In this document: positions 34,310-51,403 of the stretch, piece by piece
Layout of the letters: each line of letters begins with the position of its first letter
Numbering within the stretch: position 1 is the first letter of the stretch
From: a virus
Virus record (IMG/VR): IMGVR_UViG_3300021602_000003
Coordinates: 64,001-128,000 of that record
Length of the DNA: 64,000 bases
Direction: 5' to 3' (one strand)
Notes under the pieces: model-generated
Seen by the model: the letters and a program-made list of their open reading frames with translations, nothing else
What the model was told of the DNA's origin: nothing
Database searches by the model: none
Program-made: the position numbers and the translations under genes

Positions 34310-36109
34310 TTAACTTAGTTCGTCGTCCTCTAAGAATTTACTTAATTTACTTTCATATGTATCGACTAGATTCGATGCCTCGGCCTGTTGTCTTAATTGG
34401 GCTATCTTTTTAGCTAGTTCTTTCTTCATTAGAGGACTTCTGGAAGTCTCGGGATCCATTTGTATCCGTTGTAATTCTTTTTGGCGCGAGCGTAATGCCT
34501 CTCTGGTTAGCGGTTGTGCAACATCTTCTACCTTTACAGTATCCCCTCTCCACTCGTCTGTGGAGTCATCTAACACATCTTGATAACTCACATCGTTGGA
34601 AGGTGCTGAACGGTTTATGCCACCCATACCACCTTCGTTTACATCACCTATCATAGTTGCATAGTCGTCCATAGTAAGTGTTCTGCCTTCCTGGCTTAAC
34701 TCGATTAACTTCTCGGCCGCATTGTGCAGATCTAGGTCGGTTTTTGCGTCTTCTTTGGCATATTCCATGATCCGAATCAATAAAGGCACATCTACTGTTA
34801 CTGTGTCAGCGGGATTATTAATTTCATCGCCTTCCGCCACACCTTGCTCCGAGGGTAACACTTGTATGTCGCCACCTGGGAATACACAAACCATTTCACT
34901 GTCAGTCACCGTTTGTAGAGCCTTGTACCCTTTTGATTGCAGTAACCTGACATATTTGGCCAGTTTACGATAATCTCTGTCAAACAATGCGTCAATAATA
35001 TCTTCGTCTATATCCTCATCGTAGTCAACGAGGTATACGGGACTGGCATTAACTTTAGCGCGTGTTATCGCATCGCCGTATACCTCGGCGTGTTCTTTAT
35101 GAGGACTGAAAAATACACCGAATGGTGGTATTTTGAATTTGCTAATTAAATGTTCGCCACCGTGATACAGAACATCGGGTAGACTTGATGATGAGTCCTC
35201 AGTTAATCCATCTGCTTCCGCCACGCCTTGCTCGCCGAATCGTTGACGATAGTCATTAGACTTCATCGAAGATCTTGTACCTATAACCGAATTACCTTCG
35301 CCACTTAATAATAGGTCGTACATTAATTTAATAACTTTTGTCGGGCTATTCATTCTTTCTAACGAATTTTTGAACCATTCGATCTTCTCCGGCTTCATCG
35401 GCTTAATGCTAGGTTTACTAATTAAGTTCATCGCTTGAACTTTTAATGTATGAAGATCTCTAATTTGTTCGAGGCGTTTTAAGTCTTCTATGCTAAAATT
35501 ATAATCTACCTTCCCTTCCTCAACATCTTGCTGTGCTGCCACATTCTGCGCTGACCTTCTTTCGAAGTTATCACCCATATGTTTTGTAGATTTTATAATC
35601 TTACCATAAACTCGATCTTCCTCCCCTGTGTCGCCTCTTGCTTTTGCAGCATCCATCTGCGGTCCAAGTTTTTCCTTCTGCCATTTATTGATAACTGTAT
35701 CTGATATCTCGTTTAACTCGTCTTCCATAATTTCGTCATCCTCGTCGGCAAGTTTTTCTATCACTATAACATTTCCAATAGATGTCTTCATCATTCTACC
35801 ATCGACCAATTGAAATAAGACTATATCACCACTAACTTTCTTAACCTTACCTTCCATCTTTGTTTTTCTAGTTCGAATATTATCGCCCGGCTCAGGCATA
35901 TCAGGAGATTCTTCTATAGATGATAGTTCGTCCCTTCGTCTTTGCTCTGACCGATCCTGCTCTCTGTGCCACTCGTCGTTACCGGGATTCTTTCTTGGTG
36001 CAGGCGGCGCAGCCTTTAGATGTTTCTTCGATTGTAAGTACTTAGTGACTCTTTCGGCAGCTTCATCTCCCGTTGGAATACTATTTTCTGTGACATGTGA
36101 TAACTTCAT
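34310..36109 (-). CDS. Modular late polyprotein containing an ADP-ribosyltransferase domain
   Basis: GATAAATA at 36140-36133 and AAAGGG SD support start MKLSHVTE; ART motifs LYHG, GVFFS, AEVYG, GYKAL, SEMVCVF; domains separated by EQGVAE/QQDVEE. Confidence 0.75.
   Translation of the reverse strand: MKLSHVTENSIPTGDEAAERVTKYLQSKKHLKAAPPAPRKNPGNDEWHREQDRSEQRRRDELSSIEESPDMPEPGDNIRTRKTKMEGKVKKVSGDIVLFQLVDGRMMKTSIGNVIVIEKLADEDDEIMEDELNEISDTVINKWQKEKLGPQMDAAKARGDTGEEDRVYGKIIKSTKHMGDNFERRSAQNVAAQQDVEEGKVDYNFSIEDLKRLEQIRDLHTLKVQAMNLISKPSIKPMKPEKIEWFKNSLERMNSPTKVIKLMYDLLLSGEGNSVIGTRSSMKSNDYRQRFGEQGVAEADGLTEDSSSSLPDVLYHGGEHLISKFKIPPFGVFFSPHKEHAEVYGDAITRAKVNASPVYLVDYDEDIDEDIIDALFDRDYRKLAKYVRLLQSKGYKALQTVTDSEMVCVFPGGDIQVLPSEQGVAEGDEINNPADTVTVDVPLLIRIMEYAKEDAKTDLDLHNAAEKLIELSQEGRTLTMDDYATMIGDVNEGGMGGINRSAPSNDVSYQDVLDDSTDEWRGDTVKVEDVAQPLTREALRSRQKELQRIQMDPETSRSPLMKKELAKKIAQLRQQAEASNLVDTYESKLSKFLEDDELS
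34831..35533 (-). repeat. Three dispersed 19-bp direct repeats (GAGCAAGGYGTGGCGGAAG on coding strand) at domain borders
   Basis: Copies at 34831-34849 and 35215-35233 (18/19 identical) and 35515-35533 (15/19). Confidence 0.85.
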
Positions 36110-36238
36110 AAGAAACCCTTTTTCATTTACATTATTTATCCGTAATTTTTGATTTGACTTCACAATGTACTTTATGCTATAATATTATTGCTAAATAACT
36201 ATCCCTTGTGAGTTTAGAGGGAGCATTAGGAGAGAAGA

Positions 36239-36778
36239 ATGATAACAGCAAAGTTACTTCTCGCTTATCTCATTAGTACAGCTAACATCGTCGGTATAGA
36301 CGTTGACACATCTAAGGTAGACCCCGAACAAGCGTATTGCTTGGCAGAGAATATCTATTATGAAGCAAGAAATGAAGATATCCGAGGTCAATTTGCAGTT
36401 GCTTCTGTTACCTTAAATCGCGCCAATGATGGGCGATTTCCGGATACTGTTTGTGCAGTGGTTAAACAAACCGCTGTATCAAGAATCAGTAAACGACTTG
36501 TCTGTGCGTTTTCCTGGTATTGCGAAAATGACAAGAAAGGTAGAGAAATACCTGTGAGAAATAAAGATGGAACAGTTAATCAACGAGTAGTAGATCAATT
36601 CCAAGTTGCCAGTATTGTAGCGATTACTGTGCTTGGAGGTAATGTGGATGATAATACAAATGGGGCAACTCATTTCCATAATCCACATACAAGTAATCCT
36701 GCTTGGAAACACGAGTTGATTAAAACAATGTCAGTTGGAAATCACGATTTTTATAAATTATATCCAGCAAAAGAATAG
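36239..36778 (+). CDS. SleB-like cell wall hydrolase (Hydrolase_2)
   Basis: CLAENIYYEARNE...GQFAVASVTLNR....FPDTVCAVV, FSW, GATHFH, GNHDFY; N-terminal hydrophobic signal; promoter 36154-36183. Confidence 0.9.
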   Translation: MITAKLLLAYLISTANIVGIDVDTSKVDPEQAYCLAENIYYEARNEDIRGQFAVASVTLNRANDGRFPDTVCAVVKQTAVSRISKRLVCAFSWYCENDKKGREIPVRNKDGTVNQRVVDQFQVASIVAITVLGGNVDDNTNGATHFHNPHTSNPAWKHELIKTMSVGNHDFYKLYPAKE

Positions 36779-36802: not shown

Positions 36803-37048
36803 ATGTCGTTTAGTAGTAATTGGCGTCTTGAACCGGGATTAAAAGCTTATATAGCATATAAGAAGAGATTTGCATTCTTGCCAACTAAATGTGTGGAAGG
36901 CGAACATGTGTGGTTCAAGAATTATTATAAAAAATATGAAATATGGGGTTCCGACGGCCCGGCCGAATTAGGTATGGGTCACATCGATTTCATAGAGAAC
37001 ATAACCGAAGCAGATTATATTGTTAGAAGATTAACCGAAGGCTTTTGA
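36803..37048 (+). CDS. Hypothetical protein
   Basis: 81 aa, KRFAFLPTKC..G..VWFK.YY. Confidence 0.65.
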   Translation: MSFSSNWRLEPGLKAYIAYKKRFAFLPTKCVEGEHVWFKNYYKKYEIWGSDGPAELGMGHIDFIENITEADYIVRRLTEGF

Positions 37049-37092
37049 CTTTCGATAGATTTTCGTATACAATTTGCATATCAGGAGAAGAT

Positions 37093-37779
37093 ATGCAAGA
37101 TAATATTATTAAAGTTTTAGATCATGGCCATGTACGATTGGTCGAAAGCATGGGTAGCGACTTATCCATTGTGCGTAATGCTAGAGTATCCTACGATGCA
37201 GAATGGCGAGCAGGTGATGACGATGGCAAAGATGCCAAATTGCTCCATTACTTGTTAAAAAATAAACATACTAGCCCGTTTGAATCTTGTGTTTTTACAT
37301 TTGACGTAAAAGCACCCATCTTTGTATTTAGACAATGGCATAGACATCGTACTTGGAGTTTTAATGAAATTTCTGCTCGTTATGCAGAGCTGCCAGAAGA
37401 ATTCTACGTTCCGGAACTGGCTCAAATTACCACTCAGTCATCATCTAATAAGCAGATGCGTACAGAAGAACAACACCGGGATGCAGAAGGCGTGGCTGAA
37501 ATCATTAGATCATCTAGCGAGGCTTCTTTCAGTCATTATCACAAGCTAATATTAAATGGTTGCCCTCGTGAGTTAGCACGTTCGGTACTACCGGTAGGAA
37601 CATATAGTCATATGTTTGCTACTTGCGATTTACATAACTTATTTCACTTCCTTAAACTTAGATTACATTCACACGCACAATACGAAATTCGTGTTTATGC
37701 TGAAGCAATGTTAAAATTAATCGAACCTGTCGTTCCAATTTCTACTGCCGCTTTTAGAGAACACATCTTAGGTGTTTAG
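37093..37779 (+). CDS. thyX: Flavin-dependent thymidylate synthase
   Basis: HTSPFE, RQWHRHRTWSFNEISARY, RELARSVLP, AQYEIR; AGGAG SD before ATG 37093. Confidence 0.95.
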   Translation: MQDNIIKVLDHGHVRLVESMGSDLSIVRNARVSYDAEWRAGDDDGKDAKLLHYLLKNKHTSPFESCVFTFDVKAPIFVFRQWHRHRTWSFNEISARYAELPEEFYVPELAQITTQSSSNKQMRTEEQHRDAEGVAEIIRSSSEASFSHYHKLILNGCPRELARSVLPVGTYSHMFATCDLHNLFHFLKLRLHSHAQYEIRVYAEAMLKLIEPVVPISTAAFREHILGV

Positions 37780-51013: not shown

Positions 51014-51403
51014 TTATTGCCCGTTATTGTTACGGGCAGCATCCATCGTTTGTGCTGTAAGCATCTTAGATGGATTAGGTTCATATCTTTGAACCTTATG
51101 ATTATAAGGCAAACCTGCAGCAGCAAGAGCATATTGCAATCCGCGGTAACCCGGGGATTGTAGTTTGCTTTCTTTAGGCACGTTTGTATATTCGGGCTGT
51201 GATTTAGTTACAGGTTTCATGAATACAGGAACAACACCTTCGCTGAACCATTCTTTGAAGTACTCGTCGTAATATTTGGCATTCTTTTTCTGATATTTGA
51301 CTACTTCGGGATTGTAGAATTTTTCGTAATCTTTACCAGCTTCTTTATAAAAACGGGCAACAACATCGGTAGGTGATTCTAAGAGTAAGTCTTTAAATTT
51401 CAT
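51014..51403 (-). CDS. Hypothetical late protein
   Basis: GATAAATA on minus strand 51416-51409 then MKFKDLLLE. Confidence 0.7.
   Translation of the reverse strand: MKFKDLLLESPTDVVARFYKEAGKDYEKFYNPEVVKYQKKNAKYYDEYFKEWFSEGVVPVFMKPVTKSQPEYTNVPKESKLQSPGYRGLQYALAAAGLPYNHKVQRYEPNPSKMLTAQTMDAARNNNGQ

Follow-up and report, generated by a model that had tools for sequence, protein, structure and literature searches.

A lake virus, apparently a T4-related jumbo phage, has a minus-strand gene that seems to encode a modular cargo protein in which one short linker between domains works both as a DNA crossover patch and as a peptide cut site; we give this reading a probability of about 0.6. The gene occupies positions 34310-36109 of a 64,000-nucleotide stretch, here called the window, which corresponds to bases 64001-128000 of a 166-kb IMG/VR record (IMGVR_UViG_3300021602_000003, G000) obtained from lake water, with a G+C content of 38% and a CheckV completeness of 43%. 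From the ATG at 36109 it encodes 599 amino acids (aa), with the same start (MKLS...) in syntenic orthologues, and upstream of this ATG the open frame runs on to a GTG at 36163 on the same strand. In the proposed architecture, unrelated small domains, namely a KOW/Tudor/SH3-like barrel, a helical module (module A), an ADP-ribosyltransferase (ART) cassette, a helical DVPLLIR module and a GGMGGINR module, would be strung together by the linker (E/K/Q)-Q-G-V-A-E-(G/A).

The first-pass annotation of this DNA had reported a 19-bp repeat at three domain junctions of the gene, and matching against shuffled sequence bears out its identities, spacings and peptides. The 19-mer GAGCAAGGYGTGGCGGAAG matches the minus strand at 34831-34849 and 35215-35233, the two copies differing at the Y position alone, a silent one, with 0.01 matches expected in shuffles of the window. 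When up to four mismatches were allowed on both strands of the 64 kb, three matches only were obtained against 0.1 in shuffles, the third being a degenerate copy (15/19 identical) at 35515-35533 on the minus strand, at the upstream boundary of module A, where relatives have QGVAEGKAD. The copies encode EQGVAE, EQGVAE and QQDVEE, respectively, and are spaced by 384 and 300 nt, both in frame, all of them at module junctions. As had also been noted, the repeat is GC-rich in an AT-rich genome (68% versus 38% G+C). Searching the whole genome and related phages for the 19-mer and for QGVAE, as the annotation had suggested, placed both in the cargo gene only within the 166-kb record and revealed the core widely in related phages.

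In 120 metagenomic homologues of the protein, GVAE occurs 152 times against 2 expected, with the linker consensus (E/K/Q)-(Q/E/K)-G-V-A-E-(G/A/D), mostly in several copies per protein and between unrelated modules. The ends of BLAST alignments between the query and these homologues fall at the same places, 29 starting at residue 193 and 28 ending at residue 298, the motifs that flank module A. Related complete genomes (343-525 kb) each contain the 12-mer GGTGTRGCGGAR 4-7 times, in several different mosaic genes, and the reversed pattern, used as a control in the same genomes, gave no match. One of them, G001, has five open frames with GVAE or GMAE, the capsid protein not being one of these. 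At least 120 IMG/VR stretches contain the 16-mer core; among the matches listed, 170 of 175 copies lie in open frames and are read as GVAE, and adjacent copies are a multiple of 3 apart in 52 of 55 cases. A control with synonymous codons, AAGGTGTTGCWGAAGG, was run over the whole collection, and with at least 120 stretches in either scan it is the contrast in multiple copies and in-frame spacing that is usable, not the counts.

The repeat had been described as largely conserved at synonymous positions, and the linker codons do prove to be fixed far beyond codon bias. The core AAGGTGTGGCGGAAGG is nearly identical at all its occurrences, and the codons GGT GTR GCG GAA are fixed across many phages. 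In the record, GTG accounts for 14% of Val codons and GCG for 8% of Ala codons, and both linkers nonetheless read GTG GCG. At 33 non-redundant GVAE sites from 55 viral loci, Gly was encoded by GGT in 32 (13 expected), Val by GTG in 24 and GTA in 9 (33/33 together; GTT 0 against 10.9 expected), Ala by GCG in 28 (2.8 expected) and Glu by GAA in 30, and the codon pattern of 70 G[VM]AE sites over a larger locus set agrees. The ThyX gene (37045-37779) contains a chance AEGVAE at 37483-37501 on the plus strand, with the codons GGC GTG GCT GAA (GGC GTA GCC GAA in the counterpart in the relative L003). It serves as an internal control, and GVAE elsewhere thus does without the linker's codons.

These codons bear on the view that the linker is a peptide linker only, its DNA identity stemming from recent common descent or gene conversion with no role in shuffling. 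Copies do descend from one another and linkers do travel with their cassettes, but in the very same sequences the adjoining module A shows no such fixation at silent sites: its Gly, Val, Ala and Leu residues that never vary are encoded by a mixture of codons, the most frequent one reaching 0.3-0.6 of sequences, and recent common descent therefore fails to explain the fixed linker. The same rare codons also recur between unrelated modules in distant phages, and breakpoints fall within the linker itself, which makes this view very improbable. We hold it to be likewise very improbable that the DNA acts in translation, the rare codons or the Shine-Dalgarno-like G-rich DNA pausing the ribosome so that the domains fold in turn. 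The site does lie between domains and GCG is rare here, GTG less so; however, two of the linker codons, GGT and GAA, rank as the most common, GTC, which is the rarest for Val, never appears at the sites, and a pause would leave unexplained both the breakpoints at the motif and the 96%-identical cassette found in another gene. Two further ideas about the linker were dropped. The Q/E/K variation before Gly (NAA codons) was considered as a sign of DNA-level selection, but A-ending codons are preferred anyway for all three residues; an internal translation start at the linker GTG would have neither a suitably spaced ribosome-binding site nor a consistent downstream start.

The first-pass annotation had proposed that the repeat is a recombination handle, and we consider this highly probable for the exchange of whole modules, since cassette gain, loss and exchange, between relatives as well as between genes, break at the repeats. 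When orthologues were aligned for the breakpoints of domain gain and loss, the module content varied and the breakpoints lay at the repeat. The orthologue P0002, which is the closest homologue, has an unrelated module in place of the ART cassette, between ...EQGV(A/D)E and V(A/T)EG(D/E)EINNP. The L003 orthologue is without module A, has the junction KQDVDE/EQ, and carries an extra module between two GVAE sites; judged from protein sequence and from the DNA of L003, QDVDE-type junctions look like hybrids of the two flanking copies, as from a crossover within the homology. Three other cassettes are present in L100, no cassette in L102, and neither a cassette nor the DVPLLIR module in L103, and the GGINR module directly follows a different upstream module in P0008, P0025 and L103. 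Exchange between genes is seen for the ART cassette, whose DNA (34830-35222) shows 96.2% identity to L098:742-1133 and 96.0% to L099, with unrelated flanks and no detectable similarity in the rest. The block shared with L098 begins within the left repeat (35215-35233) and ends just past the right repeat (34831-34849), and the L098 gene product combines cytidylyltransferase-like (nucleotidyltransferase), ART and HD modules. The L098 gene (L098:151-2268, contig Ga0007798_10003323) is itself a mosaic of the cytidylyltransferase-like module, the same ART cassette, an HD_4 module (RelA/SpoT-type HD) and a hydrophobic tail, and its left junction, GMGGAEGLTE, is a decayed copy of the linker.

Variants lacking cassettes, which the annotation had recommended looking for, were found in contigs of other samples. 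Contigs, rather than raw reads, from four other lake, freshwater or sediment samples (X2, X3, X5 and X6) were aligned to the cargo gene, and parts of the stretch left uncovered in this comparison are no sign of absence. In an X2 contig, position 34830 runs directly into 35215, so that exactly the 384-nt ART cassette is gone, and the two sides of the joint share 10 nt. Both cassettes are missing from an X5 contig, where 17 other bases separate 34845 from 35544. From X6, one contig bears an insertion of 471 nt at 34825/34829 and a second has 59 other bases in place of the C-terminal tail (34311-34530). Contigs from X2, X3 and X5 diverge at 35713/35722 into a hydrophobic module known from P0002 and L003. 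The net length changes in these contigs are multiples of 3 without exception. Because the exact runs in the repeat copies are 8 and 10 nt at most, shorter than the 31-letter words that we assume for the Logan assembly as in its run index, the joints are not likely to be assembly collapses. Insertions, deletions and replacements between close relatives thus end in the conserved DNA motif. A recurrent module of the relatives consists of a hydrophobic Gly-rich stretch (GWK..AALAGAMALG) and one or two repeats of YS(T/K)EYLQKAADP.RFGR (L003:6001-8862; P0002; L071, L073, L074 and L075); relatives have it after DEDDEIME, the window's gene is without it, and it may be membrane-active.

Tight conservation over about 16 nt, together with cassettes that are discrete and always in frame, could also point to a dedicated enzyme, a site-specific recombinase or homing-type endonuclease that recognises the core in the manner of integrons or shufflons. 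We regard this as quite improbable. No such enzyme stands beside the cargo gene, whose neighbours are NAMPT, a SleB-type hydrolase, ThyX and a weak radical-SAM match (whole genomes were not searched for one), and the QDVDE-type junctions look like hybrids of flanking copies. Recombinase sites have an inverted or palindromic layout, whereas these repeats are direct, coding and in frame, and reading the 19-mer, for which no repeat-finding search was made, showed no such layout. The exchange pattern itself is plain from the aligned sequences, and from it we infer the recombination enzymology.

That the linker is in addition a head-protease cut site, in a protein packaged in the prohead, seems probable by analogy with T4. 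The capsid targeting sequence (CTS) of T4, MKTYQEFIAE (PMC8442874), is removed by the protease gp21, which cuts after L/I-X-E, and CTS and gp21 process the T4 internal proteins and the ART Alt (PMC9026906). In the present family, [VILM]-x-E precedes all 36 distinct copies of module A by no more than 16 residues, including copies in distant phages that have lost the DNA motif, against a background of 23%, and all junctions of the 599-aa protein carry hydrophobic-x-Glu. The protein starts with the leader MKLSHVTE (36086-36109, minus strand), which is CTS-like and likewise ends in hydrophobic-x-Glu. Such leaders of 8-9 residues sit on unrelated first modules (MKLSHVTE, MIIDELFE, MNLIDLYE and MKLNDVILE), and 58 of 98 distinct N-termini of the family fit the loose pattern M-x(3-12)-[LIVMF]-x-E, a count given without background. 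By a stricter leader pattern, 7 open reading frames (ORFs) were found in the record against 0 in 10 shuffles, 6 of the 7 following an ATAAATA element. Homologues of the ART occur in two forms: inside larger proteins, as cassettes with hydrophobic-x-Glu on either side, and on their own, as proteins of 120-140 aa that start directly with a leader (for example MRINEILTE).

A protease of this type was found in two related complete genomes, where Peptidase_S77 matched at E = 2e-24 (G001, at 262671-263129) and E = 2e-27 (G003). The protease gene appears to belong to a T4-like head cluster of portal, protease, scaffold and capsid genes, the roles other than the protease being read from ORF translations and the capsid match; the G001 capsid protein is 65% identical to the capsid proteins of Vibrio phage 2.275.O and Pseudomonas phage PA5oct. 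A search of five records for Peptidase_S78 gave none. G000 shares 55 of its 158 ORFs of at least 150 aa with G001, and the positions of the shared ORFs suggest a conserved gene order.

Five further ORFs of the record begin with leaders of this kind, at 51017-51403 (minus) of the window and at G000:C1 37541 (plus), 51223 (plus), 156630 (minus) and 158479 (minus). Their leaders are MKFKDLLLE, MKLFELLLE, MKISEIITE, MKLQELIRE and MKIKEAILE, each behind ATAAATA, and three of the five are on the minority strand; their products are candidate single-module capsid cargo proteins. In G001, the portal gene (in L092, G001:260001-280000) and a linker-bearing gene of 1416 aa (G001:56222-60469) share the upstream 12-mer TAACGGTAAATA, which hints that the cargo gene is co-regulated with head genes there.

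Several observations weigh against a linker with both functions. The cargo gene is set amid genes of nicotinamide adenine dinucleotide (NAD) and nucleotide metabolism with no head genes around it, and no protease, capsid or head gene was found in the 166-kb record, which is 43% complete. The G001 capsid protein is without GVAE. A protease motif would not need the conserved Q-G that precedes V-A-E or the G/A that follows, and since the published P3 residue of gp21 is Leu or Ile, the Val or Met at P3 here is an extrapolation. On the DNA side, a stretch of 16-19 nt is on the small side for homologous recombination to be efficient, selection for evolvability, being second-order, is weak, and the DNA conservation may be a by-product, in that only cassettes with an intact linker keep spreading.

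Part of this would suit a linker that is a DNA handle only, that is, a recombination site and flexible spacer within an intact polyvalent protein that is unpackaged, or packaged uncut. All DNA-level evidence fits this equally well, the cargo gene is away from head genes, and some polyvalent proteins, among them the N4 virion RNA polymerase, enter the virion without being processed (PMC5512222). We nevertheless consider it unlikely, because the hydrophobic-x-Glu outlasts the decayed DNA motif upstream of every module A copy, the N-terminal leader ends in the same motif, and the stand-alone ART versions carry a leader of their own.

Under the preferred reading of a crossover patch that is also a cut site, the microhomology of AAGGTGTGGCGGAAGG would let ordinary homologous recombination insert, delete and exchange modules in frame, whether inside one gene or across genes and phages, and no dedicated recombinase is apparent. 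At the peptide level, the linker would offer hydrophobic-x-Glu to a T4-type (S77, gp21-like) prohead protease. The leader of 8-9 residues, whose own end is hydrophobic-x-Glu, would direct the chain to the prohead, where the protease would cut it into separate small proteins that are then ejected into the host. The terms 'late', 'virion polyprotein' and 'injected effector', which the first-pass annotation applied to this gene and its modules, are what we infer in the same way. More tentatively, with the odds slightly on the other side, this may be one case of widespread integrase-free domain shuffling among lake T4-related jumbo phages, in which about 16 nt are selected as crossover and cut site together and effectors are ejected in combinations on a single leader; each cassette would then behave as an in-frame mobile unit, able to spread only as long as its linker DNA stayed intact.

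The list of domains given by the first-pass annotation (SH3/KOW-like, helical, ART and DVPLLIR) is broadly right by structure models and Foldseek. An AlphaFold model built from a 48-sequence alignment contains confident domains split by the low-confidence residues 120-135, 194-200, 271-365, 396-438 and 488-511. The junction motifs DVEE (195-198), GVAE (295-298), GVAE (423-426) and DVNE (489-492) are all predicted in segments with a predicted local distance difference test (pLDDT) score below 50. The beta-barrel of residues 71-117 (35759-35899, minus strand, as for all modules here) has pLDDT above 90 and matched KOW and Tudor barrels by Foldseek with probability 1.0 and a root-mean-square deviation of about 1.7 A in the model. 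Module A (residues 199-293, about 95 aa; 35234-35514; pLDDT 80-94) is helical and widely shared, its copies being typically about 80% identical in protein. The DVPLLIR helical module (34646-34830) recurs in numerous mosaic proteins besides this one and also in an uncultured phage of 735 kb, and the GGMGGINR module with the C-terminal helices (34313-34633) forms a tail that is variable by orthologue comparison and the model. Two junctions had been overlooked by the annotation. The first follows DEDDEIME (35713-35725) and is a hot spot of module insertion, with an extra module in P0002 and L003 and contig divergence; the second, GDVNE/GGMGGINR (DVNE at 34634-34645), is a fourth junction and lies in the low-pLDDT residues 488-511. 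Mosaics of relatives add HD, GNAT, sigma-70 region 4, BLIP and ParB-like modules.

For the ART cassette (residues 299-426; 34850-35214), a model made alone with 23 relatives reached pLDDT 87, and its top Foldseek match was 6kyf (E = 6e-5, probability 1.0), which is the ADP-ribosyltransferase AcrIF11, with RES toxins and PARP catalytic domains thereafter. Pfam ART-PolyVal (PF18760) matched at 21.5 bits, under its cut-off of 31.2 (E = 4e-4; profile positions 6-58 of 140). In the family alignment Y46 never varies and H18 and E107 hardly ever do, and by our own reading these three form the predicted H-Y-E catalytic triad. The modelled cassette has the H-Y-E-type fold of a small ADP-ribosyltransferase resembling AcrIF11. 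The second-best fold match of the ART model was chain 9k3a_B of the cyanophage A4 pre-ejectosome (E = 0.02), and ART-like folds may occur in the ejection apparatus of other phages.

The cargo gene is among the few minus-strand genes of the window. Its neighbour NAMPT is nicotinamide phosphoribosyltransferase-like by reading of its sequence, and the SleB-type cell-wall hydrolase at 36239-36778 (plus strand; Pfam Hydrolase_2, E = 1e-21) is divergent from the cargo gene. The 599-aa protein had no match in PHROGs; in a cultured-phage collection its sole protein relative was the DVPLLIR match in the 735-kb uncultured phage, and the DNA of 10 kb around the gene was without match. A T4-late-promoter-like element, GATAAATA, lies at 36133-36140 on the minus strand, 31 nt 5' of the ATG, and is invariant in 5 orthologues. 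The record has 43 copies of it on the plus strand and 11 on the minus strand, in keeping with gene orientation. More generally, T4-late-promoter-like (G/T)ATAAATA stands 12-67 nt 5' of many ORF starts across the record, with window examples at 236, 11288, 19924, 44969 and 55613 (plus) and at 36140, 51416 and 63504 (minus), and is probably the main promoter type in this part of the genome. The upstream element does not establish a late class for the cargo gene, because many other genes of varied function in the record carry the same motif, which therefore gives no expression class.

The separate parts of this arrangement are already known, namely CTS-targeted proteins processed by gp21, polyvalent proteins and motif-mediated modular shuffling. 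The closest functional parallel in outline is the set of T4 internal proteins IPI-III and Alt (PMC9026906, PMC12373910), which share with the present protein a short N-terminal leader ending in hydrophobic-x-Glu; an S77 protease is encoded in the genomes of relatives here. Alt is likewise an ADP-ribosyltransferase cargo, and the free ART homologue with a leader has the arrangement of Alt. The T4 cargo set is also highly variable, non-essential and probably acts against host defences. In contrast, T4 uses one gene with its own leader for each cargo, whereas here several putative cargos share one reading frame, divided by candidate cut sites, and silent positions of the linker DNA are kept.

Polyvalent proteins of phages and conjugative elements (Iyer et al. 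2017, PMC5512222) carry 2-15 unrelated conflict-related domains per polypeptide with extensive mosaicism. The present protein is alike in having at least two unrelated effector-type domains (KOW-like barrel, helical, ART and DVPLLIR modules) and in its weak ART-PolyVal match. Release of domains by proteolysis has been proposed there, through autoprocessing by an embedded metallopeptidase; a Pfam search of the protein and its modules here gave no peptidase domain, which is a difference. A term search of that paper gave no instance of 'linker', and in the passages it returned neither a conserved inter-domain motif nor DNA-level conservation was found.

At the DNA level, the PeSL cassettes and the glycine-rich motifs of gp38 adhesins of T4-type phages (PMC2839356, PMC4122927, PMC3157838) are similar in that short conserved crossover sequences surround variable segments, shuffling proceeds by homologous recombination, and indels between close relatives end in the motif. 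PeSLs are, however, intergenic promoter/terminator stem-loops that shuffle whole genes (PMC2839356), whereas the motif here is coding; the gp38 glycine-rich motifs are core structural elements of one domain (PMC3157838), whereas the motif here is an in-frame linker between independent domains and probably also a protease site. Integron cassettes and shufflons resemble the present system as discrete cassette arrays bounded by a short repeat; they differ in that no integrase or Rci-type recombinase stands beside the cargo gene, the repeats here are direct and coding, and the cassettes are domains rather than genes. AcrIF11 (6kyf; bioRxiv 10.1101/2024.08.26.609590), the best structural match of the ART cassette, is also about 130 aa and phage- or plasmid-encoded, with 16% sequence identity and as a free-standing protein rather than a cassette within a polyprotein.

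The combination of an in-frame coding inter-domain linker, fixed silent positions and a probable cut site was not found in the literature searched, where QGVAE retrieved only alpha-synuclein papers among the matches listed. If the proposed reading is true, large phages would diversify their injected proteins by swapping ready-made domains at a universal in-frame joint, not by whole-gene gain, and each swapped domain would be freed by head maturation. The linker would be a concrete case of one sequence under DNA-level and peptide-level constraint together, and a leader followed by hydrophobic-x-Glu linkers with the core AAGGTGTGGCGGAAGG would be a signature for ejected effectors in metagenomes, with anti-defence enzymes such as the AcrIF11-like ART among the probable finds; the arrangement would also suggest a natural design for multi-cargo loading of T4-type capsids. 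This window contributes natural indel variants joined at repeats, a 96%-identical cassette in an unrelated gene and a cargo with a predicted AcrIF11-like fold.

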